A stretch of DNA of 63,934 nucleotides, counting the filler, from Stramenopiles sp. TOSAG23-6 (lineage: Eukaryota): the NCBI GenBank assembly GCA_900128565.1. It is 28 parts of 28 records of this genome, joined end to end, with 100 filler letters (N's around TTAATTAATTAA, not from the genome) between each part and the next. Parts side by side here need not be neighbours in the genome. Positions count along the whole stretch, not along the records: positions 2,305 to 4,507 come from LT638214.1; positions 4,608 to 6,809 come from LT638215.1; positions 6,910 to 9,110 come from LT638216.1; positions 9,211 to 11,408 come from LT638217.1; positions 11,509 to 13,706 come from LT638218.1; positions 13,807 to 16,003 come from LT638219.1; positions 16,104 to 18,298 come from LT638220.1; positions 18,399 to 20,593 come from LT638221.1; 20 more parts are not named here. One strand, given 5' to 3'. Each line of letters begins with the position of its first letter. Position 1 is the first letter of the stretch. Below the pieces are notes generated by a model, which was given only the letters and a program-made list of their open reading frames with translations, searched no databases and was not told where the DNA came from. Shown one piece after another: positions 2,447 to 62,581 of this stretch. The translations under genes and the position numbers were made by a program.

Positions 2447-3170
2447 GTCATTGGTGCCACGAATAGACCTCAAGAATTAGATGAAGCAGCTAGACGTCGT
2501 TTTGTGAAGCGGTTATATATAGCTTTGCCTGTAGGTTTGGATTTTTTTTTTTTTTTTTCATACGAAATTTTGTACCTAACGAAAAAAAATTTGGAAAAAA
2601 AATTTCAGTAAAAAAAAAAAAATATTCTTCACAATATATACTCAAGAAGCTAGAAGTGCATTAATTACTAGATTACTACAAAAAAACAGTTCAAATGTGT
2701 CTAAAAATGAGATTAAACATATTGTTCAAAAATCAAAAGGCTTCTCTGGCTCAGATCTCCATGCTTTATGCACAGAAGCTTCAATATACGTTTTTTTTAT
2801 ACGAAATTGTATACCTAACAAAAAACAAATTTTCAATTTTTTTTTTTCAATTTTTTTTTCAAATTTTTTTTAAATTTTTTTTTTTATAAAAATTTTGTAC
2901 CTAACAAAAAAAATTAATTTTTCAAAAAAAAGAAAAAACTATATTGTTGTACATTATTTGGGACCTATTCGAGATTTAATGACTGGATCTGATATAATGA
3001 CATCAGCAGCAAAAATGAGTGCTGATTCAGTGAGACCAATAAAAATGACTGATTTTGATACCGCATTCCGACAGGTTCGTGCAAGTGTCGCTCAACCAGA
3101 ACTTTTATCGTATATTAAATGGAATGAAGAATTCGGAAGTTTTGGTGAATCCAATGAAAAACAAGACTAA
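2447..3170 (+). CDS. Fidgetin/spastin-like AAA ATPase, C-terminal exons (2447-2530, 2640-~2785, ~2960-3170)
   Basis: Spliced translation [36 protein letters not shown]...[20 protein letters not shown]...WNEEFGS. Confidence 0.9.
2531..2639 (+). other. Family intron, GT..AT
   Basis: CCT|GTAGGT...TTTTGTACCTAAC...CAATATAT|ACT restores LP-TQEAR. Using the internal CAG at ~2608 would give an immediate TAA. Confidence 0.85.
2786..2959 (+). other. Family intron with AT start and two branch motifs (boundary ambiguous by 2 nt)
   Basis: AT|ATACGT...TATTT|G GGA (or 2784-2957, AT..AT) restores EAS(M/L)GPIRD. Confidence 0.7.
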
Positions 3171-3463
3171 TTTTTTAAAAAATGGCCGATGGCCGATGGA
3201 ACAAAGCTGTTTTTTTTGACCTGACCTCGGAGATCGCGTCGCGCGAATATTCAATATATTATTAAATTTTTGATCGATGCTCTAAAAAAAAGTTTGTGTT
3301 TTATATACGGAGGAAGTTTACTATACCTTTTTATTTTATATACGATAACGAATACAAAAAATATATCTTCAATTGCTAGCTCTGATTGATTGTGATATGA
3401 CGAAATAAAAGTTAAACTCTATATACTGATTCTAGAATACATTATTTTTGTTTGTGTTTCCGA

Positions 3464-4429
3464 ATGGGTGATACTTCATCTCGAATCAGTGATGAAACTT
3501 CTGGATTTGCTAATGTAGCGTGTAAAGAGTGTCTCGAGACTACAACACCAGAGTGCATGCTTCTTTGTGATGGTTGCCCTAATGCTTATCATACGTTTTG
3601 TTTACATCCTCGCCTTGATGAGATACCAGATGGTGACTGGTTTTGTCCGAGTTGTGTCGAGCGCCCAAAAGAGAACAACACAGAGTTGAAAAAAGAGACG
3701 AGACTAATGTGTAGTATACCTCAAATGACACAGTCAAGTGTAGTGTCTTCCGATGATACCGATACTAATTTCAATGGTATTATTGATGATGATGAAGTCA
3801 AACTCAAAAATACTAATAAACCTACACTTCATTCATCAGATTCGTGTGATATAGAAGCTGATCTTGAAGCCTATAGAAATGAAATTAATGAAAAAAATAA
3901 TGCCTCATTGTCTCTCAATACTCTCAATACTCCAGGCAGAATAGATTCAGAAATAACTGAAAATGTTTCACAAGTAAAAGAAAAAAAAGAACCTACACTG
4001 CAATCATCAGATTCATGTGATATACAAGCTGATCTTGAAGCCTATAGAAAAGAAATGAAACTAAAAAATGAAAATTCTACAAAAACTTTTGAGAGTGGAC
4101 ATGAAAAACACGAAAAACACAAAACAATACGAAAGCATCCTATACTTCAATCAACCCTGTTATCAGATTCATCCGATTCATCTGACATAGCAGCTGATAT
4201 TGAAGCATATAGAAATCAGGACATAATTGTACCTAACCCTAGAAACACTAAAAACACTAAAAACACTAAAAATACTAAAAATACTACAAACACTACAAAA
4301 ACACAAAAAATGGATGAAATATCTCTGGACAATATTGTACCTAACCCTAACCCTAGTACTATATCACAACCAAAACGACGATTGAGTTCAAGATCAATCC
4401 AAAAACGTGTCGTTACCATAGATGGACAT
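3464..4429 (+). CDS. PHD-finger protein (3' partial) with three SSDSxDIxADxEAYR repeats
   Basis: CxxC...MLLCDGCPNAYHTFCLHPRLDEIPDGDWFCPSC. A family intron starts at 4430 (GTCCGT). Confidence 0.85.
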
Positions 4430-5018
4430 GTCCGTTTTCAATATTGAATTTCGATTTTTTTTTTTTTTTTTCATACGAAATTTTGTACCTAACGAAAAAA
4501 AATTTGGNNNNNNNNNNNNNNNNNNNNNNNNNNNNNNNNNNNNNNNNNNNNTTAATTAATTAANNNNNNNNNNNNNNNNNNNNNNNNNNNNNNNNNNNNN
4601 NNNNNNNCGTATTCAGTTGATATTACGTAGATTCAATTCTTTATTCGAGTAAAAATTGAATACGTAGATCTCAAGAGGAGGACCCGAAGAAGATTGAAGA
4701 TTTGAGAATCTCGGCACTTTTTTAAGATTCGGGATTTCAAAAAATATAAAACACAACACGAAATCCAAATAATTGAGCAAAAAAAAAAAAAAAAAAGAGT
4801 CAAACAAAAAAAAAACTAAAACAAAAACAAAACAAAAACAAAACTAGCTAGTACAGTAGTATTGTTTGTTAAGCAAGCACAAGTACCGGAAAACGTTCTA
4901 CGTAGCGGTGCTCTACATTTACATTTTGCACGCTCTCTGTATATGCATACTATAGATAAGGATAATAACTTGTTTTGGTTGCTATAGCATTTTTCAACAA
5001 CACAAAAGAGTAGAGTAA

Positions 5019-6660
5019 ATGGTGTATTTTATACGTTTACCCGTTTCCATCCTTATGGGACGAAACAGCAGACGCTGCTTTTTTAGTAAACATTATGTAC
5101 GATCATTCATATCATATCTAGAACCAAACTCATATATGATAAATATATCGTCAAAGCCAATATTTCCATATCGAGTACAGTACATCCGTCCTTTTTCTGA
5201 GTATAAAGAGTCAACAAATACTAGTAGTAGGAATACGTCTCCAACATCTTTAACTGGCCCAAATAGTTTTCAATCAAATTCTACTCCTCCCACAGATGTT
5301 GATGTTGGTACAACAAATACAGTCAATACAACTACAAATACGAATCAAAACAATAAAAACAAATCAAAGAATTCTTCTTCTCGCGTTGACATTGTCAAAG
5401 CTCTTCGAGAAGTGTTAAAAGCAAAAGGCGATGTATGTTTTATTTTTTTTTTACAAAAAAATCGAATTTTTTTTTCATACGAAATTTTGTACCTAACAAA
5501 AAAATTAGATTTTTTTTGAAATATTTTTCTAAAAAACATGGAAAACTATTTCGCATTGATAGACATGATAGCATGTCGGAATATTTAGTAACTGATCCTG
5601 ACTTAGATACAATACCATCAGAGTCTGTAGAAAATCCGATAACAGGTAAAACAATAAAATGGTACAATATTAAAGATGTAAAAACACTTGTCGTTCGGCG
5701 ATGGGGATCGTTTGAAGCCATGTATGTTTTTATTTTTTTTTTTTTATTATGAATTTATATAATTTTTTTTATTTTTTTTCATAGTAAATATTGTACCTAA
5801 CAAAAAACAAAAAAAACAAAAAAAAATTGAAATATTGTTTTTCAATTTTGAATTTTTTTTTTTTCATAGTAAATTTTGTACCTAACGATTTTTTTTTTTT
5901 CGTAAAAAAAAAATATTTTTGTAAAATACATGGAACTTGAGAAAGAAAAACGTCGCAGTGCGTTTTGGAGTCAAAAAAAAAAGAAAATTCGGTTACAAAG
6001 AGAGGATAGTCAGCGTCAATATCAAAAATACCAAAATAAAGACAATACACAACCTTCGAAACAGAAGCATCGATATCGATCGTTGGGTCATGAAGAAAGC
6101 AAAAGTATCTTTTTTATTATGAAATTTTTTTTGTATGAATTTTTTTTTTTTTTTTTTATTATGAATTTTTTTTTGTATGAATTTTTTTTTGTATGAATTT
6201 TTTTTTTTAATGAATTTCAAATTTAATTTTTTTTTTTGAGTTTTTATTTGATAATAATAATATTTTTTTTTGTACCTAACAAAAGTGTATTTAAAAAATT
6301 TTGACATATTTTTTCATATATATCATATCCAAGCACTCGAAAAGGACAAACTAGAGTCTGGCAAGAAAGATTAGGTCATTTAAAAAAACAAAACCCTAAC
6401 CCTAATCATGAAAACCCTAACCCTAATCATGAAACATTCTTGGCAAATGATAATTTGAATAGTATAACAACTCATCCAAGTCGAAGTGATCGATTTGACC
6501 AAAAAATTAATAAACAACATAATTCAATTGATTCAAAATCAGTGGTTGAATTAGCAGTGAAAGGTAATGGAGCTGTTGCAATTATGAAATTTGGTGCATT
6601 TGTACATTTTAATCATGAAATTTTTTACCTACATTATTTTTCATACGAAATTTCGTACCT

Positions 6661-6699
<39 letters not shown>

Positions 6700-6748
6700 A
6701 ATATATGCCGTCACAGGTTCAGGTTCAATGTTATCAGAAGCTATTCAT
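5019..6748 (+). CDS. SLC30A9: Zinc transporter 9-like CDF protein, 5 exons (3' partial)
   Basis: XPA-like segment (EYLVTDPDLDTI...DVKTLVVRRWGSFEAMELEKEKR) plus the CDF start GNGAVAIMKFGAF|AVTGSGSMLSEAIH after removing four GT..AT introns. Confidence 0.85.
5433..5539 (+). other. Family intron, GT..AT
   Basis: GAT|GTATGT...GTACCTAAC...AAAACAT|GGA, in frame. Confidence 0.85.
5722..5931 (+). other. Family intron, GT..AT, with duplicated branch unit
   Basis: AT|GTATGT...AATACAT|G GAA gives EAM-ELEK. Two TTGTACCTAAC motifs. Confidence 0.85.
6105..6323 (+). other. Family intron, GT..AT, with internal tandem expansion
   Basis: A|GTATCT...GTACCTAAC...CATATATAT|CA joins into the downstream frame. 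Confidence 0.7.
6602..6706 (+). other. Family intron, GT..AT, containing (TA)n
   Basis: TTT|GTACAT...AAATATAT|GCC restores KFGAF-AVTGSGSMLSEAIH. Confidence 0.88.
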
Positions 6749-6960: not shown

Positions 6961-7515
6961 ACTGAAATAATAAAAACAAGTGACAAAACAAGTAAAATGA
7001 AAATTATTGTATACTGTACAGCTAAACTGTGTCTTCGAATAATATGATTCGATCGTCTTCGTGCATGAGTATGTTGATGCTTTTATGTATTGTAAGAAAA
7101 TATTTCATTTTTTTTTGATTTTTTTTTGTTAGGTACAAAATTTCGTATGAAAAAAAATTGAGCAAAAAAAAAATCTAGACATTTTTTTTGGTGACCACTT
7201 ACGATGATGTTTTTGTTCTGTTGTATTGACGTTTTGAGTCTTGTACGCTGTATTTGGAATTCCATTGCTTTGTTGTTTAGGTCTACTAGTAGACACAACG
7301 GGTGGCGTGTAAGCAGTAGGATCAGATTTGATAGTAGAAGAAGAAAACATATTTTCAGCATGCAGTGTTTTGAGCATTTCGTGTTTTTTTGTTTTTTTTA
7401 TCTTTTTCAAATGCGTCTTTTGAATGTTTTGTTTTTGAATAACTTCATGTCCAACTCCGTTGTCGACTGAACTGAAAAGAAACAAAGCAAATAAGAAGAA
7501 TGGAGTTTTGTTCAT
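6961..7515 (-). CDS. Signal-peptide/membrane protein of unknown function (partial), family intron at ~7085-7180
   Basis: Hydrophobic N-terminus MNKTPFFLFALFLFSS. Intron motif on the minus strand; phase unresolved. Confidence 0.45.
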
Positions 7516-8215: not shown

Positions 8216-8984
8216 ATGATATTTCATCGTGATAATTGGAATCGAAACACAATTCTTGCATTTCTTTTTGCAGCTACAAATAATGCTGCATATGGAGTAT
8301 GGGGATCTCCACTTTTACCTACATTTATTTACATTGTCCAAAATGAACTTGCTACTAAAGTTGGATATGCAGAAGCCGTCCAAGGGGCATTTCAAGCAGC
8401 TCTGGCAATCCCTGCAGGTTGTCTAGCTGATAAAGGTAGTCGTCATTATGTATTAAAATTTGTTTGTTACATGTAAAACTATGTCAAATGATTTATTTCA
8501 ATATATGATCATTTCACTTTGAGTAATGTAGTTTAGTAAATGAGATATATAATACAAATGCACCATTATTTCACATTTTTTCTTTTAACATATTTACCAA
8601 ACATGATATGCAGCGATAGTTCAAATCTTGGCAGCATTGGCTACAGGATATTCTGTGTTAGGCTTCCAAAATAGTAACCCTAACCCTACTACTACTACGA
8701 ATACTCCTACTACTCCTACAAATCATACAACAAGAGATGAACAGTATATGTTTTATTTTTTTTTTTTCTGGAAAAAAAAAAATCGATTTTTTTTTTGGTT
8801 TTCGTACGAAATTTTGTACCTAACAAAAAAATTTAATGTTTTTTTTTTTTGAAATATTTTTCCAAAATACATGGAAATGGTTACTGATTTCGTGCTCACT
8901 ATGGGGATGTTATGCAGGATTATACGGGCCACCTTTGGAAGCTATATTTGGTGATTCAGTAACTACAGGAAAACGAGCTTATAT
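8216..8984 (+). CDS. MFS transporter, N-terminal exons (8216-8461, 8610-8745, 8873-8984)
   Basis: AIPAGCLADKGSRHYVL (MFS motif A-like), hydrophobic helices, PPLEAIFGDSV. Confidence 0.75.
8746..8872 (+). other. Family intron, AT..AT
   Basis: CAG T|ATATGT...AATACAT|GG AAA gives EQ-W-KWLL. The next intron at 8985 also starts ATACGT. Confidence 0.75.
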
Positions 8985-9341: not shown

Positions 9342-11329
9342 TTATTTTTTGGAACTCAATACATTTTTAAAAAACTGAAAGTAAGTTGAGCTTAATACGG
9401 CATCAGAACAATTTACAGTAACTTTTGAGTCCCCTGTTTTGATATCTGAATCAATACTCAATAAAATTGAATCATTTGTATCAATCCGACATCCGGTAAA
9501 CATTGCTTTACCGCTACATAGAAAATCATCCTCAACTGGTAACAGAAATAAGTTAGCAGAGATGAGAATTTTTTGTACACAATTGTCCAAACCTAAAATC
9601 GATACATGACCTGAAGATTCTTGCATTCCCGCCATATGAACCTTAACTTTTTCAAATTCATCACGAGACATTGGAAGGGACCGTATTAGTTCCCCGATCG
9701 GAATTTTCATTTTTATTGGATAAATTCCTCGACTGCAAGAAATTGAAAATTTGACTGGCTTTTCTTTTCCTTTGAAATCTACAGGAATTCGTGTAGGGAA
9801 CATTACTTCTGGAAGTAATTTCGGAATTTCTTCAAACGTTCGAATTGATTTTTCATCTTCTACTTTAATCATTCGAATATTTTCAATGCTGTAGGGTTTG
9901 TTATTTTTAATATGAAACTCAACAATATTGAAATTGGTACCTAGAGGAGAAATTTCACGTAGAAAAACTGTTTCAATACTCAACCCATTTCCCATAACTT
10001 TGCTCAAGAGACAATGCTTTGTCAATAGATTATTAGAAATCGTATCTCCCGATTGTGTCGTTGTACCTTTCTTGACGATTTGTTCAGGACTCGAGAGAAT
10101 TTCACAAAGACCTGAATGCAAAATATGCTCATCTTCATTATCACCCTCAACTTCATCAAGTGGATCAAATGAGTCATTGTGTTTGATCGTTTCATGATTT
10201 TCTTCTTTTATCTTTGATGTATTACTATCAACATTGAAACTATCAAACATTTGCAAAAGATCATCCGAAGTGGATACATTTTTGGTATCTACATTTGCAT
10301 TAATACTTTTAGAGGGTTTCAACAGAGGAGATAATCCTGGAAGAAGTTTTTCAACTGGTTTTAAATTATTTCTATGCTTTTTATTCACTACGGTAGGTGT
10401 GTTTACATAACTACTAGTTTCAACAGTTGTGTCACTATCGCTATCACTGTTGCTGCTATTCGAATCATCATCATTAGAATCATCATCACTACTATCGCTA
10501 CTACTACTGCTATCACTATCAGAGCTACTACTACTACTACTACTACTACCATCATCATTATCATCATCATCATCATCATCAGATGATGATGATGATGATG
10601 AATAAAAACCATCAGCCAAACTTTTTACTTCTCTATTTGTTTTTTGTTTTTTTGATTTCTTTCGATTCGCTGAATTCGCGGCATCAAAGTCATCTGAATC
10701 CGAATCATTCAAATGAGTGGATTCTCTTACACTGGAGTCAAGAGGATCAAGGGTCCAATCGGGAAGTTTTTGATATCCAAAAGCCGCATGTTTTACACAA
10801 TGTGATAATGAACCTAGTATAAATTGTGTACGTTTTTGAGACATGGTTTCGTCTTTCGGACATTTTTTCGAAATATCTGTATCCATTTTATCATATTTAC
10901 TTGTAAAAAATATTCGTTTTGCGTAAGAAACTATATTAGCATCTTTCTCTTCACCAATACATATTGTTTCAAATAATTTTGCTCTGTCCCTTACGTCATA
11001 GTTTAAGTCATATTTTGCTAATTGTAAGATATACTTTAAAAGTAAATACAAATTATTATGTATTTTGGAAAAATATTTCAAAAAAAAAAACTCAAATTTG
11101 TTAGGTACAAAAAAAAATAAAATATACATCATTTGGATTTTTCATCTGAAGTTTTACAGCTAAATTTACAATTTGCATTTTGACTTCAGAATTTTCTCTC
11201 TGAAAACCAAGCGCAAGTTTTCGAAGAATATCTGGAGCTTCTACGCTGAAGATAGAGTAAAAATCTCTGACAATCCAAACGATAGATGCTCTTGCGGCTG
11301 GGACTTTGACAGAGTCCAATAGAGATACA
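9342..11329 (-). CDS. AP3B: AP-3 complex beta subunit, C-terminal part
   Basis: PAARASIVWIV, APDILRKLA, VKMQIVNLAVKL, YILQLAKYDLNYDVRDRA, acidic Ser/Asp hinge and ear domain. Confidence 0.9.
11058..11127 (-). other. Minimal 70-nt family intron, GT..AT
   Basis: GAT|GTATAT...TTTTGTACCTAAC...AAATACAT|AAT, in frame (NPND-NNLYLL). Confidence 0.85.
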
Positions 11330-20693: not shown

Positions 20694-22471
20694 TATATTG
20701 CACCTGAAAGCACATTACGAATATGATACGGCCATTCTGTCTCTTCGACAGCTATTTATTGTGAAAAATATTTTTTTTTTGGTTAAAAACAGTTGTTAGG
20801 TATGAAATTTTCATAGTAAAAACTTCATTCTCGATGAAAACGTACTTTAGCCAAGACAATTCTGTCGATGTTGATGGAGTAGATTGGAGGAGAGATCCAA
20901 ACTTTGATAGACTATTTCGCATCGCATGGATGTTGGCAATTCCTAAATACTTGATACTAGCATTTTTATAATTGCTATTACTTTCCACGCCACCACCATT
21001 TAAACCATTTGCATACGCCGCTGCTTTGGCTCGACAATCAGCAATTAGCAATTTATTTGATTTTCTATTTGACATTCTGACGGAGGAGAGCAAAAGCTCA
21101 TCTTCTCTATTACGATTTCCTCCAGCACCGACTACACCAAGACCTACCTTTGGTTGTGATGACCTCCACATTGTAGGTCCCTGTATTGTGAAATTCTTTT
21201 TTAAAAAGTAAAAAAAATTGGTTACTACAAAATTTGGTAAAAAAACAAAAACAAAAAAATATTGAAAGTCAAAACATACATTTGGCTGACCTGGGAAACA
21301 CCAAGAGAACGCAGGAATGCGTCCTTTTGAACGAAAACTTGCACATTTCCACATATATAGCGAAAAATATATCACAAAAAAAATCATTAGGTACAAAATG
21401 TTTTGGAAAAAAACAGTTGAAATGAATGATGAAAAAGTACATGGAAGCTTCAGAAAAATCACGCGGCTTGATTAATTGTTCGGGATATGTAGGTGTCATT
21501 CGATACCCATTATTACTAGTTGAAAATACGAACGGCGATGTTTGTGATGTGATTCCAAGACGATTATATTCTTGTACTGCATTGTACTGGTAGGGTAAGC
21601 CATCTGGCGAACTTTCAGTAGTAAGTTGACTAAAAAAACAAAAAGCAAGTTCAACTTTACTAGGAAAAGCCATTGTTTTCAATGTTTGAAGAGCTTTTTT
21701 ACGGGTTTCTTCGCATTTAAACCCAAATACAAGCGTGCGGAGATCTTTACATTTGACACAAATAAGGACTTTTCGCCCATTTTTTGTACTGTGTAATTCC
21801 AATTTTTGGATGCATCCCAAAGGAACGTCAAAATATTTTGGAGGGAAATCGTAGGATTCAGTAGGGAAAAAACGCAGTTGGTATGTAGTACACATCAACT
21901 CACCAGCAACCATTGGAGGAACACCTGGTTCACAACGCAATGCAGCACTAAAAAAATAACAATCTCCTACTTTCATTTCTATCAACAATTGTTCCCCCGG
22001 GAGAAAAGAATCACGGGCATTAAAACTACCCAGGGGCTTTGGCCGATTCCGCGGGAGACCGAGTGCCGATTTAGATCGTGGGCAAACACAAGAAGGGTCT
22101 ACAACATCTACTGCGACATTGTTTTTGTTGCGTTCCGTTGTTTGAGAAATAAGAGAACTAGCAGACACTACAGGTTGACTTCCGACAGGTTCATTTCTGG
22201 TAGTCTTCGTCCTTCCGTGTCTACCTTGGCTTTTAACGCGCTTCGATGCTTTATTGCTCGAATTTAATTTGCGGCCTGATAAATTAGTCTTTGGTGCCTC
22301 TGACATGGATAAAAATGGATTATTCACCAATTCATGATCAAAACTGGCACTGCGATTTATCGCCTTTTTTGCTTTTTCTTCTTTATCCTTTGCTAATTGT
22401 AGTTTTGCATCTTGCGCAGCAAACATTGAGAGTGGGTCGTTCATACTATGTAAGAAAATTCTTGAACTCAA
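20694..22471 (-). CDS. Myotubularin-related phosphatase with GRAM domain, 4 exons (partial)
   Basis: TPTYPEQL, ASFRSKGRIPA, WRSSQPKVG, IADCRAKAAAYAN, IANIHAMRNSL, W..HIRNVLSGA. Confidence 0.92.
20754..20845 (-). other. Family intron, GT..AT; an AG 2 nt downstream is out of frame
   Basis: AA|GTACGT...AATAAAT|A GCT restores SWLK-AVEETEW. Confidence 0.82.
21181..21279 (-). other. Family intron, canonical GT..AG variant
   Basis: AAT|GTATGT...CACAATACAG|GGA. Confidence 0.85.
21353..21440 (-). other. Family intron, GT..AT
   Basis: AT|GTACTT...CTATATAT|G TGG restores EASM-WKCASFRSKGR. Confidence 0.85.
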
Positions 22472-24167: not shown

Positions 24168-25130
24168 ATGATGATTTTCGACACCATTTTTTTCAGTAGA
24201 GCAGCTGTACAAGTGTACGCTGTAGTTGGAGTCATATGGATTGGTCAGTTTCTATTGAGTCTATTGCTCAACTTTCGTTTTTTCAGATTCTTATGTGGTG
24301 AACGTCGCGTAAATTTCCGAAAGTGTAAAGGTTGGGCTGTGGTGACAGGTGCTACTGATGGAATTGGCAAAGCACTTGCAGTGGAGCTTGCTCGTCGTGG
24401 CCTATCAATCGTATTAATATCTCGAACTCAGTCTCGTTTGGATGCTGCTGCTGCTGAGTGTCTTGCTGCAGGTCCAAAGGGAATAAAGACTAAAACAGTG
24501 CAGGTCGATTTTAGTCTCCAGAATGCGGGAATATATGAAAAGCTAGAAGAAGCTTTACAAGGGTTGAATATTTCTGTGCTCATTAACAACGTTGGTGTCT
24601 CCTATCCACATGCTCAATACTTATGTGAAGTAGATGATGCCGTCTTGGATTCTTTGAGCTCAGTAAATGTAAAGGCAATGATGCGTGTTTCAAAAATAGT
24701 TTTGAAGAACGATTTGATGAAAGCTGGTAGTGTGATAATAAACGTAGCTTCAGGTGCTGGTATAATTTCGAGTGATCCATTGTATGCCGGTTATGCAGGT
24801 TCTAAATCTTTTGTTGATGCGTTTTCTCGATCTCTTGCCGTTGAATTGCGACCAAGGAAAATGTACGTTTTCAAATTTGGAAGTTGAAATTTTTTTTTTG
24901 TACGAAATTTTGTACCTAACAAAAAACAATTCTAAAAATATTTTTTCACAATACATTGTCGTTCAGTGCCATTGCCCTCTTTTTGTTGTCTCTAAACTCG
25001 CAAAAATTCGCAAACCATCATTTTTTGTCCCCACTCCTGCAGATTATGCGACGGTGGCCCTCAATTCAGTGTATGAAGGAAAACGTGTAACAATTGTTCC
25101 TCATTGGCCACATCGATTGCAACTTTACAT
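24168..25130 (+). CDS. Very-long-chain 3-oxoacyl-CoA reductase / HSD17B12-like SDR (3' partial)
   Basis: WAVVTGATDGIGKA, LINNVGVSY, YAGSK. After the intron: IVVQCHCPLFVVSKLAKIRK. Confidence 0.9.
24863..24956 (+). other. Family intron, GT..AT
   Basis: AT|GTACGT...CAATACAT|T GTC gives RK-I-VVQ. Confidence 0.88.
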
Positions 25131-28514: not shown

Positions 28515-29578
28515 ATGTTCAACATGTTACTATATGCAGTATTACTCATTGCCGTGTACGTGGTCGAAGGAGGCAGAGAAGGTTTTCATGAAAGTCATGG
28601 AACGTGTGCGGGTTTGTTCAAGCACCATATAATGGAAGAAACTGGAGTTTGCTACAAAAAAATTAATCCCTTGTTGTCTCGTAATGACTGCCCAAACGGT
28701 AACCCCGGTTGTGACTGCGGTGGATATGACTTCACAAAGGGATCCGTTTTAAATTTTGAGGAAACAGATACAGAATGTTGCTCGGCGTTGTTGGATATAC
28801 AGGAGGTATGTTTCTGTCCATGTTGTAGTAAGTTGGAGAGATATCAGAAACCAGCCACGCTTGCATATATTGCGCTGTGCAAAGGACAAACTACTGCGAG
28901 AGAAGCCGCATTGAAAACTGAAGTGGAAGCTGTGGCAGCAAGGGAAGCCGCATTGAAAACTGAAGTGGAAGCTGCGGCAGCAAGGGAAGCCGCCGCATTG
29001 GAAGCTAATTTCGAAGCGGAAGCTGCCGCATTGAAAGCTAAGAAAGATTTGGAAGATATGAAAAATAAACGAGAAGCTCACAAAGTGCAAGTACATGCAG
29101 CAAAAATAATTCAAAAAGAATGGCGTGCGAGAGCTGCGAAGAAAGATCAAGATCGCAAAAACACAGAAGAGAAGGACGGATTTTTCTCATCAAAACGATT
29201 GATATTATATGCTATTATTGGAGGAGCTTTACTTTTTGTGCTTGTTGTATTTATTCTCTGCTGGTGCCGACGGAATAAAAATGTTGAGAAAAGGAAGTTA
29301 ACTATTAAGGAAGGAAATGTATGTTTTATTTTTTTTCAAATTCGAATTTTTGTTTCGTACGAAATTTTGTACCTAACGAATGTTTTTTCAAATATTTTTC
29401 CAAAATACATGCGTCGAGAGTCGTCCATCGAAAACATCACATGGAACCACAGGTAATACAAAAACCAGTGAAGAACTTAAACTGGTTTAAGTTTGGGTTC
29501 CTAAAAACACGAGAAACACCTGCGAATGGCGTTGTAAATGGCGGTAACAGTATTAGTGATAAATGTATACCAGTGTAA
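28515..29578 (+). CDS. Type I membrane protein: Cys-rich ectodomain, AAREAALK repeats, TM; GT..AT intron at 29319-29410
   Basis: Signal peptide and TM LILYAIIGGALLFVLVVFILCW. AAT|intron|GCG joins in frame. Confidence 0.7.
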
Positions 29579-33248: not shown

Positions 33249-33292
<44 letters not shown>

Positions 33293-33433
33293 GAAAAAAA
33301 AAAAAAATAAATAAAACATACATATTGGCCCACCTCCATAACATATTTCTCCACAGCTATTTGAATAAAATGCAATCACTTGCATTGGCGACACTGCTCT
33401 TTGAGGCAATTCCAATTCAACACGAAATAATTC

Positions 33434-33478
<45 letters not shown>

Positions 33479-41269: not shown

Positions 41270-42300
41270 AAGCATGTATTGTGAAAAATATTTTTTTTTT
41301 TGGTTTAAAAAAAATCGTTAGGTACAAAATTTCGTACGAAAAAAAAATGTTGGTAAAAAAAATCAATTTTGAAAACGTACAAGCTGCGTATGTTTCTGAG
41401 TTCGTCAATACATTCAAACTTGCGGCAGCTGCTTTAAATTCTCTATTGGTTTTTGCAGTTTCTAAATCCGTCATGAGAAGTTTGTAGTTTGTAGAAACTG
41501 TTGTAGCTTTAGAAGCTTCGCACGAAATACTTTGTTTTGTCACTTTTGTTGCTGGGGTGTCTTTTAAACTTTTTCCGGTTTGATCAACGAATTTAAATCC
41601 TCCAGTCGTTGCATCACCAGCCAAAAAAGAAAATTCCAAAGTTCCATCTGCATCACATTTTGCCAATTTTTCTTTCGTCAACGTAGTGGGATACTTTTGA
41701 CCATTATGAACGAAATCAGTAAACATAACAAAAGCTACTTTTCCTTTTTGAAAAACTTGTTTTCCGGTTTTGGCTCCAAATTGTTGGAACAATGCTTCTT
41801 GTGGTTGTTCAGAAGGCTGGACAGTAAATAGAGTGCTTACAGGTGGACCATTGTTTCTTGCATTTGTAAGCGTATCGGAGCCACAGCGAATTTGAAAGTT
41901 GCCGCTCCATAAACTTGCAATTAATGTGAAAGAGTGTCCTTCGTGCTCTNNNNNNNNNNNNNNNNNNNNNNNNNNNNNNNNNNNNNNNNNNNNNNCTCGG
42001 GTCAACTTTCATTTCTTTTATCCACGATTTGATGTTTTCTTCGGAACTGTCGGAAGATATGCGATAGATTTTACTATCTGTAAAGCCATCAGAATGCTTT
42101 TGATTTGGATCCTGTGTTAAGGAATCGGCAAGCTGAAGATAAATATCCTTGCTGTCCTTCGTAACACATTGTACAGATACGAGGCTTCCTGACATTCCGT
42201 CCATGTTAAAGGAACCTGAACGGTATGTGCATTTGTCCATACCCATCGCACTTACAAAACATAAGCAAATAACATAAGATGTGAGAATATATCTCATCAT
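41270..42300 (-). CDS. Secreted protein of unknown function (internal gap); GT..AT intron at 41274-41380
   Basis: Signal peptide MMRYILTSYVICLCFVSAMG. Confidence 0.55.
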
Positions 42301-45862: not shown

Positions 45863-47075
45863 GATGTGTTGTCTTTTAATACACACATTGGAATCTATCA
45901 TAGTCGTGTTTTGGTTTTGTGACAAGAAGAAAGGAAATACAAAACTTTCATATCATCTTTATTTTGAAACAATATTAACTTGGACTTCGCTTTTAGCTGA
46001 ATTATCTGTCCAAATAATACATAGCCCAAGTAAAAGTGTATATTGTATGACATTTTTACCCATAACTAGAGGTTTTCGAGTGCTTCGTTTACTCACAGTA
46101 TCGTCATACTTTGATAGAATGTGGAGGGCAATTGTTGTTGCAGTACCAGTTCTATTTGCTCTTTCAGCAGTTTGGTTAGGTCTTACATATTCATACGTAA
46201 TTGTTGGTATGGAACTATTTGGAAAAATTGGTGATAAAGAAGCACTTGCAGGAGAAGTTGATGATTATGCTCCTTTTGGTAGGAATATAGGTAGACTTAG
46301 AATAAATAAAATGCTTCATCAAATTGAAAGAAATAAAAATCCTGCAGCAGATGCATTTGTAAATCACCAACATGTACGTTTTTGTCATTAATTTCCAATT
46401 TTGTTTTTTCGTACGAAATTTCGTACCTAACAAAAAAACAACCAAAAATTTTTTCACAATACATGCACTATTTACTGGTTTTGCATCAACATTAGGTCTA
46501 CTTTGGCAATTGACAGTATCGAATAATTGGCAAGATATGTACGTTTTCACTATGAATTTGAATTCTTTTTACGACGAAAATTTTTTACCTCACGAATTTC
46601 AAATTTCAAATATTTCTTAGGACACATAATGCATCCCAACATTGAGCGTACGAGTCAATACTATTCCTGGTATTTTACAACTTATTATTGGTTATGCCAT
46701 ATGTTCCTATTAGATGTTATTATTGGTGTTGCGATTGATGCTGTACAAAATTTAGATGATGAAGATAATAAAGTGAAAGATAAAGTCAATGAGGGAGGTA
46801 ATCGCCATTCTAGCATATCTAGTTTAGATTACAATACTTCTGGTCTTAGTTGGAATTCACTTTTAGGTTTTTCTGAAGACGTCACAATAGAGAATGTTCT
46901 CAAAGAGGACCACAAAATGGTTGATGGAATGACAGCAAAGTTGACTGCTCAATCAAGAGAAATAGCATACGATACATTTTCAGATCAAACGTCTAAAGCG
47001 GCAAAACTTTGGAAAAAAGCCATCACTGCAGCCATGTCACCTAAAAAGTTTCCTCAACTTCACCAAAAAGACTAA
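45863..47075 (+). CDS. Two-pore/voltage-gated cation channel C-terminus; GT..AT introns at 46374-46464 and 46539-46627
   Basis: S4-like RGFRVLRLL, YVIVGMELFG, pore LTVSNNWQD-I-M, FLLDVIIGVAIDA. Confidence 0.8.
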
Positions 47076-50288: not shown

Positions 50289-50507
50289 NNNNNNNNNNNN
50301 NNNNNNNNNNNNNNNNNNNNNNNNNNNNNNNNTTAATTAATTAANNNNNNNNNNNNNNNNNNNNNNNNNNNNNNNNNNNNNNNNNNNNAAAAAAAGTGTA
50401 TGATCAAAACGAAAAATGTAGTTTGAAAAAAAAAAAATTATATTTTTTTTGTTAGGTACAAAATTTCGTATGAAAAAATAAATCTAAAATTCATGATAAA
50501 AACGTAC

Positions 50508-51505
50508 AAGGTCACCGTCTTTCCTTGCCTTGGATAATGATGAATGAATGGTCTCATCGTCAATGGATTGAGTGAAAATAACACTAGATAAATTTGTGTT
50601 ATTCAATGACATATTTTCGAGTTGGTTTGGGTTATTATTATTTTTCTCTTGTAACTGATTATTTAAATCTCGATCTTTTCTCCAATTTGAAAGTTTTTCC
50701 ATTGTTTCGTCGATATTAGCAATAATGACGTCATGTTTAGCACAAGCAGCTTCTAAAGACTCGAGTTGTTTTAGACGAACACATGTGTTGTGAAAAAATA
50801 TTTTTAAAATTGTACATTGGTCAAAAAAAATCATTATGTACGAAATTTCGTACAATTGTTTTTTTTTTTTTAAACATACCATCTTCAATGACACGAGAAG
50901 AAGATGTCAAAGTATTAGTTGCTTGTAAGAGAGCATTGTTGCTTGATGAATGTTGATACGTTAGCTCATCGACTTGATCCACTGCTTCAGATGCTGTAGC
51001 CATCGCACGGGCATGTCGTGATACAGCAGAATTTGAGTGAGGCGGAGATATCTCTGTTTGAGTCATGGATGAAGACTCTTCTTTGCCTTTTTCTATCGGA
51101 GAATTCATTTTCAAGAAAGTTGTAAATTCCACAACAATGATGGAATCAATTAGTCTTCTGCTTGCCAGTATTTTTACTTGTAGTGCTTGTGGATGCCCTC
51201 AACAATTTCCAATTAGAGCGGACACAGTAAATATAGGGCAAAGAAACAACAAATGGAGCAAATATAATCCAGTAACCTTCAACTCCAGTCACAGTAGAGA
51301 AAGTCTGAAGAATCAATAAAGTAGATCCAAGGATACTACAAATTATGTACACGCACAGTATTAAATCGTAATTTACGCCGACTGCCGGTTCAAAGATATT
51401 CATTTCTACAATGCGTAGATGTTTGGTCCGACGCGAACACAGACAAAAAAGCAAAGAGAAAAAGACAGAAAAAAGACAAAAAAGCACAAAAAAGAGAGTG
51501 ACCAC
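50508..51505 (-). CDS. Membrane/coiled-coil protein of unknown function; GT..AT intron at 50783-50879
   Basis: G|GTATGT...AACACAT|GT gives EDG-VRLKQ. Possible frame break near 51140. Confidence 0.45.
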
Positions 51506-53147: not shown

Positions 53148-54393
53148 ATGGGATTCGGATTAGTTGCCAAATGTATTGCACTTCTTGCAGTCATTGTAGG
53201 TGTTGTAATTTTCGTCCTTCCTCCAGATGTGCTGAAAGGAATATCATCCAATGTTGTTCTCAATAATTGGCAGCTTCAATTGACCGTAACCGGGTTCTGT
53301 TTTTCGGGGCTTCCGCAAAGATTACTCCAACCTGAACGCGGCCTTGATATTGGCGGTGATTTCGATTTTGCTACTGATGGTGATCTTGAAAACGACGATT
53401 ACAATAAGGCATCGATTTATTCACTTTTGTATGGAATGTATGCGAATGCTGGTACAGTCATCTCTGACTTGGGTGTTCCTTACCAATTCACGTTTAATAC
53501 TTGGGGAATCGCACCAAGTCCGTACCCTGTGAATGATCCACAACGCCACGGCAAAGCGGCATACACAGGTCTCGTTCGTTTCCCACAAGTTCTGGAGTAC
53601 TTAGAAAATGTAACGGATTCTCCGGTCATGGTGGAAATCGGCAGTGGAACTGGAGCCGGAGCTAACCTCATTACTCGTGAACTTATTCCTAAGGCTACAT
53701 ATTATGCCATTGACATGCAAGCTGCTGGTGTAGCCACGTGTAAAAAACTTCATGGTAACGAATCAAATCCAAATCTTAAGTGTGTGCATGCTCCAGAAGG
53801 TATTGGAGTGGGTGGTAATCGTGTAAAATATCCTGACGGTAGCTTAATGCCTGACCATTCCGTTGATTTCGTGATTATCTGTGAAACTCATATTGCAGAT
53901 GTCGAAATTGGAGTAGAAGAAAAAGCAATATTCGCTGAAATTCACCGTATTTTGAAACCAGGAGGATATTTCTTATGGGGTAATGCTTTACCTACGCGAG
54001 TTTGGAATGCTGCCGTTCCTTATCTCAACGATAATGGTTTTAGTCGTCAAATGAGTTTAAATCACACTGCCGGTGCCATTACTGCGCGAGACGAAGATGA
54101 AAACCGTGTAAACGCGTACTGCGATTCCCTTATGGGTGGATTCCCCGTCTTCAAGGCTCCATTTGGTTGGGGTGACGAGTGCCATCTTGTCACTGATCGA
54201 CTCATTAAAAACTTTTACAGACATCCTGGTACTGTACGTTTTCATCATCAATATCAAATCTATTTATTTTTTTATAAAAATTTTGTACCTAACAAAAACA
54301 ATTTGAAAATATTTTCCTAAAATACATGCGTTGTATTTGAAGATGGTTACTGGTTTTGATTCATATATGCATGAAGCATACCAAGCAAATTGA
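53148..54393 (+). CDS. SAM-dependent methyltransferase with N-terminal anchor; GT..AT intron at 54234-54327
   Basis: VEIGSGTGAG, FAEIHRILKPGG. ACT|intron|GCG gives RHPGT-ALYLKMVTGFDSY. Confidence 0.85.
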
Positions 54394-55935: not shown

Positions 55936-56878
55936 ATGTTTTCATATCGATTAGTGAGTTGGGCTAGAGCTGCAGGCATAGCAAACGTTTGCCGAAGAGG
56001 TTTAGCCCAATCTGCTGCGGGTAAAGTGGTTGTTGGGTCTCAAAGTATAAAGCCACGCCGTAGACGACAACTTAAGGCTGCTCTTTCATTGGTACGTACA
56101 ATTTGCCATATTTTGTGTTTTATAGAATTTGCTTTGTATGATGCATTGCTTTTGTTATTCTGTGTTATATCATTTTCACTATGCTCTCCACACTTGATGA
56201 CATTATTTATATCAATATGATACAAACGACATCTTTTTAACAAAGAATACTCTTTATGATATCATTATTTCCATAGACTGATGCAGCTGCTGATAGAGTA
56301 AAAGAATTATTAGAAGGAAAAGATGATGTACGTTTTCATTATGACTTTTCAAATTTATTTTTTTCGTAGGGAATTTTCTATCTAACAAATTTCATTTTTT
56401 TGTAATATTTTCCCAAAATATATGTTATTGGAGTTCGTATTGGAGTCAAAACTAGGGGATGCAATGGACTTTCATACACAATGAATTATGCAAAAGAAAC
56501 AGAAAAGTTTGAGGAGGTAGTAAAAGAAAAAGGCGTGACTGTTGTAATAGAATCAAAAGCGCTAATGCATGTATGTTTTACTTTTTTTCGATTTTGAATT
56601 TATTTTTTTTCGTACGAAATTTTGTACCTAACATTTTTTTTTGAGTAAAAAAAAAATATTTTTACAAAATACATGTACGTTTTTCATAAGGAATTAATTT
56701 TTTTTTTAGTAAAAAGAGAAGTTTTTTTTAACAAAAAAATTAATTTGATATATTTTTCACAACACATGTCGTAGGTACAACAATGGACTACGCAACAGAT
56801 GAAATATCTGCAGAGTTTGTGTTTCATAATCCAAATGCTAAAGGAGCTTGTGGTTGTGGAGAAAGTTTTAATACATAA
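55936..56878 (+). CDS. ISCA1: Iron-sulfur cluster assembly protein IscA/Isa1, mitochondrial, complete (exons 55936-56091, 56277-56327, 56424-56570, 56768-56878)
   Basis: AALSL|TDAAADRVKELL...|VIGVRIGVKTRGCNGLSY...KALMH|VVGTTMDY...NPNAKGACGCGESF. Confidence 0.95.
56092..56276 (+). other. Ordinary non-family GT..AG intron
   Basis: TTG|GTACGT...CCATAG|ACT, without the family motifs. Confidence 0.88.
56328..56423 (+). other. Family intron, GT..AT
   Basis: GAT|GTACGT...AAATATAT|GTT. Confidence 0.88.
56571..56767 (+). other. Two back-to-back family introns (56571-56674 and 56675-56767) with no exon between them
   Basis: CAT|GTATGT...AATACAT|GTACGT...AACACAT|GTC. Confidence 0.85.
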
Positions 56879-59350: not shown

Positions 59351-59993
59351 GTATGTATGTTTTATGTTTTTTTTTTTTTTTTACCGANNNNNNNNNNNNN
59401 NNNNNNNNNNNNNNNNNNNNNNNNNNNNNNNTTAATTAATTAANNNNNNNNNNNNNNNNNNNNNNNNNNNNNNNNNNNNNNNNNNNNTTTGTTAGGTACA
59501 AAATTTTTTTACCAAAAAAAAAAAAATAAATTCGATTTTTTTTGTAAAATAAAAAAATAAAAAAATAAAACATACATTACATTCTTGTTCAGTTACATGA
59601 CCTGTGCTGGAAGAGGTAACGTTGGTACTATGTTCAAGATGTTCAACATCTTGAAGATGTTCAATATGTTCAACATCTTGAGGATTTCTTTTATATATCT
59701 CTATGATTCGCGAAGATAAAGCCCAAAACTGAAATTTTAAAATACCACTGGACGGCACTATCATGTGTGAAAAATGATTTATAGAGTTTTTATTTGTTAG
59801 TTTTATGTACAAAGTGTAAAACTATTGATGTAAAAACAAATATTCAAGTCAAACTTTGATTGTTGTAAAGTGTTTTGGACCTGTACAAAAAAATTAGATT
59901 TCAAATTTCAAATATATGATAATTCAAAGTGAAAAAAAATTATAAAAAAATTGTTAGGTAAAAAATTTCGTATGAAAAAATCAAATAACCTAC

Positions 59994-61593
59994 AATTCCA
60001 TCTCGTCGACATCACTTGAGTAGATGGTATTGGTTTACCATTAAGAGTAACATTGCGCCAATATTCACTTATATTCAAATCACCCTTTGCTGTATTGTGA
60101 AGAAATACTAAAAAAAGAAAAAAAATTAGGGCTAGATTTTTTTACAAAAAAAAAAAATGTTTGTATAAAAAAAAATCTTGATGACAATGTAAAAATTTTT
60201 TTTTTTTGATTTTTTTTTGTTTGGTATGAAATTTTTTTACAAAAAAAAAAAAAAAAAAAATCTTGATGACAATGTACAAGTTTGGAATTTCACTCTATTT
60301 AACAAAATCGTAGATATTGTAAATTCACGAGATATGGACAAATTAAATTCAAAATTTTCAATTTTTCTACAATTTTTGTGATAATGTGGTTGGACAATTA
60401 CATATTGAAATTGTAAAACTCCACATTTAGGTAAACCAAATGGTTTGATTATATTTTCATATTTTTCATTGATGTTGTCATTTTGTTTTCCTGAATGTTT
60501 TGAATTTTGAATTTTCGTTTTTTTCTTGTTTGATTTTCGTTTTGTGATTTTTGTGATTGATGGATCGATCTTATTGATCATATTGATATCTTGATGTAGT
60601 TTATCTACGCCGTATTCTTCTTCTACTGAAAATGTAGCACCATCAATGGTTGAATTCGTCCAATGTTCACCCACTCGATGTAAAACACGAAATCTAAGAT
60701 TTTCAGCCAAATTTCTTTCATCACAATTTGATAAATTCAATGTATAAAAGTCCGATAAAACATATAAAGGATTTCGTGTAAATATTTCGAATTCTAAATG
60801 TCCATGGTTTGGCAATTTTAAAATATGCATTGCTTTTTGTTGACTATTTGGTCTACTATTGAGTTGCTTTTGTTGAGTATTTGGTCTACTATTGAGAAGT
60901 TTTTGTTGAGTATTTGGTCTACTATTGAGATGTTTTTGTTGACTATTTGGTCTACTATTGAGATGTTTTTGTTGAGTATTTGATATCATTGAGTTCATCG
61001 AATCTTCGTGACTTATTTCTTCATTGATATCAACAGTACAACCAATGGATTCTTCTTTTATTTGGTTTCTTTGATGATTGGATGTTGATCTATTTGTACC
61101 AATTTTAGAATTTCCCAAACATTTCTCAAACCAGTCTTTTATTTTGACTTCATTTCCATCTAATGTTGGCTTATACCATACATTCAAGGGTGATAATGCT
61201 GTAGATTGGAAAATATTTCAAAAAAAAAAAAAAAAAAAAGTTGGGAACAAAATTTTTTTACCAAAAAAAAAAAAAATCGATTTTTTTTTTACCGAAAAAA
61301 AAAAATAAATAAAACATACCTATATCCTCTAAGAACAATTGAGCGGCTTTATTTTGTAATTTGTCGCTTAGGACAAAAGATTTTTTTTCACTATAATTCA
61401 TTCGGAAAGACACGAAATCAAGTTCTATTCGGCCTTCCTTTTTTTGCTCAATCCAATGTGTGCCACGTGGCACAGACTCATCAAAATCAAAAGGTTCATG
61501 ATTATATGATTCATTTAGAATGTTCTCACCAGGTTCGTTCCGTGCTGCTTCTAAAATACTATAGAAAGTTTCTCTATGTTTTTGTAACTTCAA
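59994..61593 (-). CDS. Unknown multi-exon protein with QQKxLNSRPN repeats; family GT..AG introns at 60090-60277 and 61199-61319
   Basis: In-frame joins EDI-A-LSPLNVW and FQT-S-KGDLN. Confidence 0.55.
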
Positions 61594-61613
61594 ATCTAAT
61601 ACAAAATGAATAG

Positions 61614-61653
<40 letters not shown>

Positions 61654-61875
61654 TTTTTTTTNNNNNNNNNNNNNNNNNNNNNNNNNNNNNNNNNNNNNNN
61701 NNNNNTTAATTAATTAANNNNNNNNNNNNNNNNNNNNNNNNNNNNNNNNNNNNNNNNNNNNTGGTGAAATAAACCGACCGATAATATATTGTGAAAAATA
61801 TTTTTGTTTTGTAAAAACTCGTTAGGTACAAAATTTACCATTAAAAAAGAATCAAAATTTATGATGAAAACGTAC

Positions 61876-62581
61876 ATACACTGCATTAATTTTGATGGGA
61901 TAAGCATCTTGATAGATTTTTGAAATTCTCTTTTCATGGATGTTGCAAAAATATTTCAAAAAAAATCTAAAAAAATTGTTAGGTACAAAATTTCCTATAA
62001 AAAAAAAAATTCGAAATTGAAAAAAAAATAAAACATACATCCAATATTTCCCAAGCCTCTTTAAAATCTTCATACGCCAAATGATACTCACCTAGACTAC
62101 AGTATGCGCGTCCCCGACTATAAAAAAGAAGATGAACGGGGCAATCAAAATGCTCAAAGCTACCTTTTTGTACCCAATGTAAAGCATTTGTGAACTCTGC
62201 AACGGCAGATCGAGGCCGATTCATATGTTTTTTGGCAGCATTATAACAATTCCAAAATTCCATTATCATTTTATTTTGATGGCAAGTGTTACTATTTCCC
62301 AAAAATAGCTCAGACTCTGAAGAGACTGCCTGTATATCTAAGTGCTTATCAATAGAGTTGGAACATTCCCTTTCCAGAGAAACAAATTCATCATGTATTG
62401 AAGCTTCATCTTTTTCAGTTATCGTGATATTATCTTGATATACGTTTTGCTGGGAAGCAACTACAGCTTTTGCGCTTTGTACAGCAAATTCTGTCATTGC
62501 TTGCAAAACTAAACGCTCTTGTAGTAACGCAAGACGCCGAAGGTGGTCAACCATATCGGCATCAGCTTCCAATAGTGTCAT
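61876..62581 (-). CDS. TPR-containing protein (partial); GT..AT intron at 61936-62038
   Basis: LFYSRGRAYCSLGEYHLAYEDFKEA. Confidence 0.7.

Follow-up and report, generated by a model that had tools for sequence, protein, structure and literature searches.

The window analysed here, 63,934 bases of Stramenopiles sp. TOSAG23-6 in 28 pieces of about 2.2 kb each with N spacers between them, carries many copies of a short repeated element inside protein-coding genes. This element is probably an introner that is removed as a spliceosomal intron by the major spliceosome, with an AU acceptor. Few eukaryotic signals are as conserved as the AG that ends U2-type introns. An introner, a kind of sequence reportedly treated by Huff et al. 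in 2016, would be a short, non-coding, recently multiplied mobile sequence, every surviving genic copy of which is removed from pre-mRNA by the spliceosome. Excision from the first base of the element, R(+1), to its last, T(-1), restores residue-level colinearity with homologous proteins in nine AT-ending introns and one AG-ending intron. A preliminary description of the window had proposed that the majority intron class of the organism ends in AU; this holds for 31 of the 37 introns recognised in the sample, one unique GT-AG intron included, while the "genome-wide" of that proposal rests on 64 kb. Such a majority would imply a spliceosome of changed specificity.

Copies and signals of the element

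The element is about 90-110 nucleotides (nt) long and lies in sense orientation in unrelated genes. Its 20-base core, TACGAAATTTTGTACCTAAC, has 35 matches with at most three mismatches, compared with 0.00 expected in 100 shuffles. Curation by coordinates gave 36 complete copies spread over at least 15 pieces, all of them sense relative to the flanking reading frames and with a median identity to the consensus of 0.78; at least 10 further copies are cut by piece ends and lie outside this curated set. Thirty-one copies end in AT and five in AG at the same aligned position, which bears out the earlier count of about 37 copies on many contigs, about 30 with AT and about 5 with AG, except that two copies presumably taken as AG cases (20754-20845 and 46539-46627) are better read as AT. 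Among the AT-ending copies 28 begin with GT and three with AT; these three A-starting copies, and the introner-type recent gains discussed below, had been missed in the preliminary description.

With a caret marking each boundary, the layout of the element is (A)T^GTAYGTTTT.., a T-rich part, CGTACGAAATTTTGTACCTAAC, an A-rich part and ATATTTTTC(A/C)(C/A)AATAYAT^G. The signals of a copy are a 5' site RTAYGT, a box GTACCTAAC 29-60 nt from the 3' end, a T-tract and the terminus AATAYAT. In the AT class (n = 31), positions +2 and +3 are T and A in 31/31 each, +5 is G in 26/31 and +6 is T in 30/31, while at the other end -2 is A in 31/31 and -3 a pyrimidine in 30/31. The corresponding counts over all copies (n = 36) are +1 G 33/36, +2 T 36/36, +3 A 36/36, +5 G 30/36 and +6 T 35/36. 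In 28 of the 29 AT-type introns examined a CTAAC-type box stands 29-60 nt from the 3' end, in keeping with U2-type introns, whose branch site is CURAY at a distance of tens of nucleotides and whose 5' site is GU with G at +5 (GURAGU or GUAYGU). Where U2-type introns end in YAG, 30 of the 31 AT-type copies end in YAT, and an AG end is found in 5 of all 36. The Saccharomyces-type arrangement GUAUGU ... UACUAAC ... YAG has a near-identical 5' site and branch core, a pyrimidine at -3 and A at -2, but here the last base is U and not G. Judged by these signals, the AT class is a putative yeast-like major-class intron, last base excepted.

The family comprises two subfamilies, GTATG...CCAAAATACAT and GTACG...TCACAATACAT. 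Three composite copies contain two cores each (introns B, D and W; 2784-2957, 5722-5931 and 32634-32829), and introns e and f (56571-56767) stand in tandem with a zero-length exon between them. At this tandem, one copy's ..ACAT^G end regenerates for its neighbour the (C)AT^G site at which insertion is preferred. The idea that AG copies are older AT copies found no support, as identity to the consensus does not differ between the classes (mean 0.75 for n = 31, mean 0.73 for n = 5; Mann-Whitney p = 0.16). Outside the curated set, a TSG101-like gene at 57290-57540 (-) has a diverged 5' site GTTTGT, a normal core and a ..GAAACAT end, and from its frames it probably holds a further AT-type intron. 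At 595-650, in piece 1 (GC 0.40), the 5' half of an element, GTATGTTTTATTTTTTTTCAATTTCGAATTTATTTTCGTACGA, breaks off where unrelated coding sequence of higher GC begins; this is a truncated copy or else an assembly join of chimeric origin. The element 20-mer had 0 matches in the metagenome contig collection. A single exact match in prokaryotic genome contigs (L020, 6187-6206 (-), a Bacteroidales metagenome-assembled genome) shows no other feature of the element and is taken as chance.

Intron boundaries in coding sequence

The introns are listed below by coordinates on the window and strand, with terminal type, gene and evidence for the boundary.

Intron A, 2531..2639 (+): GT..AT; FIGNL1-like AAA ATPase; residue-level homology.
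Intron B, 2784..2957 (+): AT..AT, two core boxes; same AAA gene as A; residue-level homology.
Intron C, 5433..5539 (+): AT-type; frame-compatible, three-exon model with 0 stops.
Intron D, 5722..5931 (+): AT-type, composite, two core boxes; frame-compatible, model with 0 stops.
Intron F, 6602..6706 (+): AT-type, KFGAF/AVTGS; in-frame, uninformative, all three downstream frames open.
Intron G, 7085..7202 (-): AT-type, 5' site GTAAGT; longest frames joined on both sides, no boundary shift possible.
Intron H, 8746..8872 (+): AT..AT; frame-compatible, a GT..AC reading yields an identical protein.
Intron I, 11058..11127 (-): AT-type, short copy; AP-3 beta gene; joins open reading frames of 79 and 571 codons, AP3B1 C-terminal domains.
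Intron J, 20754..20845 (-): GT..AT; myotubularin; unambiguous boundary.
Intron m, 21181..21279 (-): AG-type, diverged core; myotubularin; homologue colinearity.
Intron K, 21353..21440 (-): AT-type; myotubularin; homologue colinearity.
Intron L, 24863..24956 (+): GT..AT; 3-ketoacyl-CoA reductase (SDR); homologue colinearity.
Intron M, 25424..25520 (+): AG-type; frame-compatible, in a 7-exon model with 0 stops.
Intron N, 26179..26279 (+): AG-type; in the 7-exon model with 0 stops.
Intron O, 26363..26459 (+): AT-type; fits within the chain of exons, 0 stops in the 7-exon model.
Intron P, 26656..26748 (+): AT-type; frameshift if the AG 4 nt before the end were used.
Intron Q, 26836..27004 (+): AT-type; frame analysis, spliced model.
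Intron R, 27332..27443 (+): AT-type, LFH/G; only 4 downstream exon codons before the piece end.
Intron S, 29319..29410 (+): AT-type; joins open reading frames of 268 and 55 codons.
Intron T, 31524..31622 (+): AT..AT (TA..CA if shifted by one); aminomethyltransferase (AMT); homologue colinearity.
Intron U, 31721..31823 (+): AT-type; AMT; homologue colinearity.
Intron V, 32386..32497 (+): AT-type, with a minus-strand mirror in a palindromic piece; joins open reading frames of 53 and 52 codons, no leftward shift.
Intron W, 32634..32829 (+): AT-type, composite, two cores, mirrored in the same piece; frame analysis.
Copy X, 41274..41380 (-): AT-type; only 4 nt of downstream exon before the piece end.
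Intron Y, 46374..46464 (+): AT-type; Ion_trans channel; open model, no in-frame canonical alternative in the scanned windows.
Intron Z, 46539..46627 (+): AT-type, decoy AG at 46619-46620; channel gene; the AG shifts the frame, the AT gives NNWQD-I-MHPN...
Intron a, 50416..50507 (-): AT-type, short last exon; uninformative for frame.
Intron b, 50783..50879 (-): AT-type, diverged core; joins open reading frames of 106 and 98 codons.
Intron c, 54234..54327 (+): AT-type; methyltransferase gene.
Unique-sequence intron, 56092..56276 (+): GT-AG, not a copy of the element, 5' site GTACGT; IscA; needed for the 154-residue frame.
Intron d, 56328..56423 (+): AT-type; IscA; full coding sequence open from ATG to stop.
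Intron e, 56571..56674 (+): AT-type, abuts f; IscA; residue-level homology jointly with f.
Intron f, 56675..56767 (+): AT-type, tandem to e; IscA; residue-level homology jointly with e.
Intron g, 59881..59993 (-): AG-type, short last exon; not informative for frame.
Intron j, 61199..61319 (-): AG-type; joins open reading frames of 113 and 319 codons.
Intron h, 61784..61875 (-): AT-type; three-exon model with 0 stops.
Intron i, 61936..62038 (-): AT-type; three-exon model with 0 stops.

The nine AT-type introns verified at the level of single residues are A, B, L, T, U, e + f, K and J, and the AG-type one is m. In the AAA gene, intron A falls between residues 251 (..YIALP) and 252 of the human FIGNL1 chain 3d8b_A, with nothing missing or added; across intron B the join is from S299 to L300 of the same chain, where two other in-frame boundaries would change one residue. 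When e and f are removed together, the exon end and the next start fall on residues 71 and 72 of E. coli IscA (1r94_A). For intron L, GT..AT excision gives RPRK-I-VVQCHCPLFV, gap-free against P0002, P0003 and P0007. Three junctions put forward in the preliminary description (IALP/TQEAR, KALMH/VVGTT and RK-I-VVQ, a slash marking the join) are thereby confirmed against homologues. The closest protein match to the SDR exon, P0001 (94% identity in the protein search), carries the EukProt label of a MAST-3 marine stramenopile assembly, and its public model, built with canonical sites, reads RPRKMYCHCPLF at intron L, with the conserved VQ lost and two residues changed. Set against window positions 24132-25130, that model shifts the donor inwards by 4 nt, into the element, and the acceptor by 10 nt, into the exon, and 13 more residues, CEVDDAVLDSLSS, which homologues keep, are removed as well. 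Proteomes of this lineage made by GT-AG-only predictors are probably damaged in most intron-bearing genes.

The three-exon AMT model aligns with 40 homologues at 50-82% identity. Across intron T, QEGKGIL/ALQGPKA is gap-free in 40/40 of them and identical in several; no reading of this intron starts with GT, and it begins with A as AT..AT or, when shifted by one, reads TA..CA. Across intron U, RSMS-V-NGTECFVTRSGYTGEDG is gap-free against 37 of the 40, and the remaining three have a one-residue insertion of their own. Colinearity with Pfam models, which is approximate only, gave offsets of 0 for U (GCV_T), -1 for T and +1 for e + f. Comparison of AMT with PDB structures produced local alignments that end before the junctions, and exon 2 alone had no match there. 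In the myotubularin gene, K, m and J are colinear with P0242 (68% identical) and with 18 other homologues. At J, the model WLK-AVEETEWPYHIRNVLSGAI stands against WLKAVEDTEWPYHVRNVLSGAV in P0242, no equivalent shift of the boundary exists, and use of the decoy AG 2 nt after the end would give a frameshift and a stop. At m, FPGQPN/GPTMWRSSQPKVG is gap-free against P0242 and P0243 (..GQPN/GPTMW..), and at K, SEAS-M-WKCASFRSKGRIP (..EAS-M-WKCA..) is gap-free against GESSMWQVAAFRSKGRIP of P0242. Wherever homologues are available (L, T, U, J, K, A, B and e + f), canonical alternatives delete or insert conserved residues.

Reading frames extend the test beyond these genes. In an automated analysis, 20 introns were informative, being flanked on both sides by a single frame that is clearly the longest, and 17 of them connect these frames; the remaining three (O, i and m) adjoin short exons (20-28 codons) at which a spurious frame extends across the neighbouring intron, and they are compatible when the exons are read as a chain. 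Stops number 0 in the 7-exon ANK model (the other frames have 30 and 56) and likewise 0 in the TPR-like and piece-3 spliced models, the channel model has its terminal stop only, and the spliced IscA model is a complete frame of 154 amino acids from ATG to stop. Three further junctions of the preliminary description fare less well than those tested by homology: NNWQD-I-M is supported by an open reading frame only, KFGAF/AVTGS is frame-compatible where any downstream frame would be, and LFH/G is followed by just four codons, in a gene whose assignment to PARP received no Pfam hit. For the channel gene the protein search returned no homologues, and the Pfam Ion_trans coordinates leave a loop insertion across Y and Z.

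The boundaries themselves can slide because (A)T is the usual end of an exon and G a frequent first base of the following one (in the AT class, -1 is T in 26/31, -2 is A in 18/31 and +1 is G in 20/31). Two shifted readings were considered as general rules and rejected: TG..CA, a leftward shift by 1 nt, is possible in only 24 of 29 AT-type introns, and AT-AC, a leftward shift by 2 nt, in only 16 of them. Introns B, G and J allow no shift at all, and therefore RT..AT is the only reading that fits every copy. Decoy acceptors are also frequent. An AG lies between the branch box and the 3' end in 12 of 29 AT-type introns, and in nine of these 12 its use would shift the frame. In intron A a good TTTCAG stands 31 nt before the end, with TAA directly after it, and would shift the frame; in Z the decoy AG is 7 nt before the end.

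Mechanism of removal and rival explanations

We propose that each copy would supply its own 5' site (G/A)UAYGU, the branch box GUACCUAAC (CUAAC), an A-rich spacer, a U-tract and the terminus AAUAYAU, with a small hairpin CGUACGA/UUGUAC often placed just 5' of the branch box, and that the major (U2-type) spliceosome would remove it, ligating in the second step after A-U rather than A-G. The major spliceosome is preferred because the unique intron of IscA (56092-56276, GTACGT...CCATAG) shares the GUACGU 5' site, and because the branch box lies 29-60 nt from the 3' end; from the IscA intron it follows that the organism splices ordinary GT-AG introns with the same 5' site. The usual contact G(+1):G(-1) would be replaced by R:U, of wobble or Watson-Crick-like geometry, a proposal made because copies with G(+1) and copies with A(+1) both end in U(-1). 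In yeast, Parker and Siliciano reportedly found in 1993 that with A at +1 the second step is blocked, except where C stands at the last position. The outermost 9 nt at either end of the element are complementary in exact register, with 228 of 324 positions pairing, compared with 71-165 in shifted registers, and in the complementary register U(-1) lies opposite G(+1) or A(+1). The arrangement points to an R:U terminal contact or to pairing of the ends that may fix the acceptor. The acceptor would be set by position, through the U-tract with AAUAYAU or through such pairing, and not by the first AG.

Several points weigh against this proposal. A spliceosome accepting both AU and AG would be expected to be misled by the TTTCAG of intron A and by the TAT 2 nt upstream in ..ATATAT. 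About two thirds of the introns have an in-frame GT/GC-AG alternative within +-30 nt, and for those lacking a homologue test the AT site would follow from family position and frame only. All copies derive from one assembly and a 64-kb sample. The protein searches contained no transcript-derived protein of the same species. Finally, mapping of four RNA runs (X6, X7, X8 and X10, at 90% likeness) to 29843-32029 gave no splice joints and no contig bridging a junction; these metatranscriptomes cover only the exon at 31008-31510 and element cores there, so that the check which the preliminary description had called for speaks neither for nor against splicing, and removal at the RNA level is what we infer from the genes.

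Two observations from outside the assembly bear on the AT end itself. Contigs of polyA RNA libraries contain element cores, which fits unspliced precursors or carry-over of DNA, and one contig, of run X10, carries another copy, whose end is ..ACAATACAT^G; at least the existence of the AT end outside the assembly is thereby shown. In P0241, an open reading frame from a Logan contig of 928 nt, introns m and J are read through, again with ..CACAATAAATAG, and the AT end is not an assembly slip, although the source runs may equal those of the window, so that this contig is not independent.

Among the alternatives, the one that survives best, though we consider it unlikely, is that the introner family is processed by a diverged U11/U12 system as minor-spliceosome (U12-type-like) introns. 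U12-type introns have the consensus 5' site RTATCCTT and the branch box TCCTTAAC about 10-26 nt from the 3' end. The near-invariant branch box of the element resembles that box, RTAY equals the first four bases of that 5' site, and +1 is G in 28/31 and A in 3/31 together with an A-T 3' end. However, +5 and +6 are G (26/31) and T (30/31) and not CC, the ACCTAAC box lies 29-60 nt from the end and not 10-26 nt, and the canonical unique intron of IscA has an identical GTACGT 5' site. Besides AT-AC and GT-AG, U12-type introns tolerate AT-AN and GT-AT termini, and GT-AT and AT-AT introns spliced by the U12 machinery are documented (PMC1557818), with 7 GT-AT and 12 AT-AT introns of this type in human and mouse. 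They share with the element the terminal pairs and the tolerance of A or G at +1, but they are rare, about 5% of a rare class, whereas here such termini dominate the sample in combination with GUAYGU and the more distant box.

Less probable again is a structure-guided, non-standard removal, as in the nonconventional introns of euglenids or the introners of Amoebophrya, in which pairing of the ends would set the cut sites. The exact-register complementarity of the termini, the exon-intron microhomology of 1-6 nt overlapping both junctions, and the minimum-energy fold, which pairs both junctions in 4 of 8 folded copies, are all in its favour; it would also explain why upstream AG and TAT decoys are ignored, and Amoebophrya introners with inverted and direct repeats at non-canonical borders are a precedent (PMC7789003). 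Stable RNA structure is nevertheless not supported, as the folds are no better than shuffles (z-scores -2.57 to +0.46, with z < -2 in 1 of 8 copies). The helix is short and rich in A-U and G-U, and because all copies belong to one family, its complementarity counts only once and shows no compensatory change. Clean GUAYGU and CUAAC signals, together with five AG copies ending at the same position, favour the spliceosome, and the borders are uniform, not variable as in the euglenid and Amoebophrya type. As a separate observation, the conserved CGTACGAAATTTTGTACC (e.g. 29357-29377) can form a 6-bp hairpin whose 3' arm enters the CTAAC motif, and 4 of the 8 minimum-energy folds contain it; this hairpin may serve to present the branch site or be a relic of element mobility.

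The least probable reading is that nothing unusual is spliced, be it that cryptic GT-AG sites are used, that the elements are unspliced insertions or single-cell assembly artefacts, or that they are eliminated from DNA: the deposited P0001 model with GT-AG around intron L, the in-frame canonical alternatives for most introns, amplification artefacts in the assembly such as piece 32130-34315, and the element cores in RNA libraries, expected under retention, are on its side, but canonical alternatives alter conserved residues in L, T, U, J, K, A, B and e + f and are absent for H, R, W, Y and a within the scanned windows, 31 independent copies end in the same T with all informative copies keeping the frame exactly, a pattern that neither random insertion nor error would produce, and the boundaries are not TA..TA, unlike those of ciliate eliminated sequences. 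The piece in question, 32130-34315, is a perfect inverted duplication with elements and open reading frames mirrored on both strands (e.g. 32811..33314 (+) and 33131..33634 (-)), and looks like a chimera of single-cell whole-genome amplification rather than biology.

Origin of the family and relation to known introns

The introns are of recent origin. At the AMT locus, 19 of 19 environmental relatives show a single uninterrupted match with no core box, and two of them (L003 and L005) have at the empty site of intron T the sequence ATTCTT^GCACTT, nucleotide-identical to the window after excision. P0242, a myotubularin of 815 residues encoded on a 6.4-kb contig, runs without a break through the sites of K, m and J. 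From the intronless AMT loci and the continuous P0242 it follows that the introns are lineage-specific gains of introner type. The relatives (L001-L019) have 50-75% identity in AMT and GC contents of 0.28-0.69, and in all of them AMT is intronless; the intron burst seems confined to a narrow lineage. Tested for the hallmarks of transposons, the junctions show microhomology of 0-6 nt and the ends are complementary over about 9 nt. With microhomology varying in this way, the junctions give no sign of a fixed-length target duplication. Spread into (A)T^G sites in this manner would fit direct insertion or reverse splicing better than a cut-and-paste transposon.

The source is an AT-rich marine eukaryote represented by short genomic pieces, with a GC content of 22-40% in the window and long reading frames under the standard code. 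In a search of sequencing runs, DNA of the window was also found in a small 2015 run and in 2024 seawater metagenomes, and marine metatranscriptomes contain small shares of its words. An Rfam scan of the 64-kb window returned no family above threshold and no small nuclear RNA. At 4229-4360 and 6380-6440, telomere-like CCCTAA repeats lie within coding sequence and encode NPNP stretches; the likeness of GTACCTAACCCTAACCCTAG in these repeats to the branch box of the element is due to chance.

The preliminary description knew of no lineage with this pattern. That claim was overstated, as U12-type GT-AT and AT-AT introns (PMC1557818), 3' AU ends in Fritillaria (PMC13326754) and the introners of Amoebophrya (PMC7789003) are on record. 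Known introners, from Micromonas, Aureococcus, dinoflagellates and other lineages, resemble the present family in being near-identical, short, non-coding elements that lie in sense orientation in unrelated genes, carry their own splice signals and are absent from orthologues in relatives (PMC9860276), but they are of the GY-AG type, whereas in the present family AT ends 31 of the 36 copies, the insertion sites are (A)T^G and no fixed-length duplication is evident. Amoebophrya is likewise a marine protist with repeated intronic elements without GT-AG, terminal complementarity and short direct repeats; its borders are highly variable, with no dinucleotide signature and a suspected non-standard mechanism (PMC7789003), in contrast to the uniform RT..AT ends, textbook 5' site and branch box seen here. 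In Fritillaria borealis, as in our proposal, a U2-type spliceosome processes non-AG 3' ends, including AU: ends in AU and AC are handled, and the U2AF subunits are duplicated and divergent (PMC13326754), which shows that a 3' specificity of this kind can evolve. That species is an animal with fewer than 10% GT/AG introns and diverse termini, whereas here one family with a canonical-looking 5' site has its last base changed. The literature searched contained no family or lineage dominated by a uniform GT-AT class whose 5' site and branch box are canonical. Nor did that literature hold a report of non-canonical introns in MAST lineages, including term searches of the accessible parts of PMC5778133, PMC8163842, PMC12614181 and 10.64898/2026.04.17.719054, whose supplements may hold splice-site tables. 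The earlier interpretation is thus partly supported: largely right, unproven at the RNA level, and in need of a narrower claim of novelty.

We give an even chance to the fuller picture, in which a free-living marine stramenopile lineage has a major spliceosome that routinely ends its second step after A-U, with R(+1):U(-1) in place of G:G and the acceptor set by a position encoded in the element, and in which an AG-less introner master has colonised most intron-bearing genes and made AU the commonest 3' intron end. If so, a natural system with GUAYGU and CUAAC in which just the last base has been swapped would offer a clean test of how the 3' end is read in the second step, the more so since the same system would accept A at +1 and skip nearby AGs. 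An introner family could then spread without supplying or recruiting an AG. Introner surveys begin from annotated introns, and families with unfamiliar splice sites are dropped unless transcripts support them (PMC12130899); surveys that rely on annotated GY-AG introns would miss a family of this kind. Likewise, gene prediction limited to canonical sites would mis-annotate these genomes, whose proteomes feed phylogenomics and the mapping of ocean metatranscriptomes.

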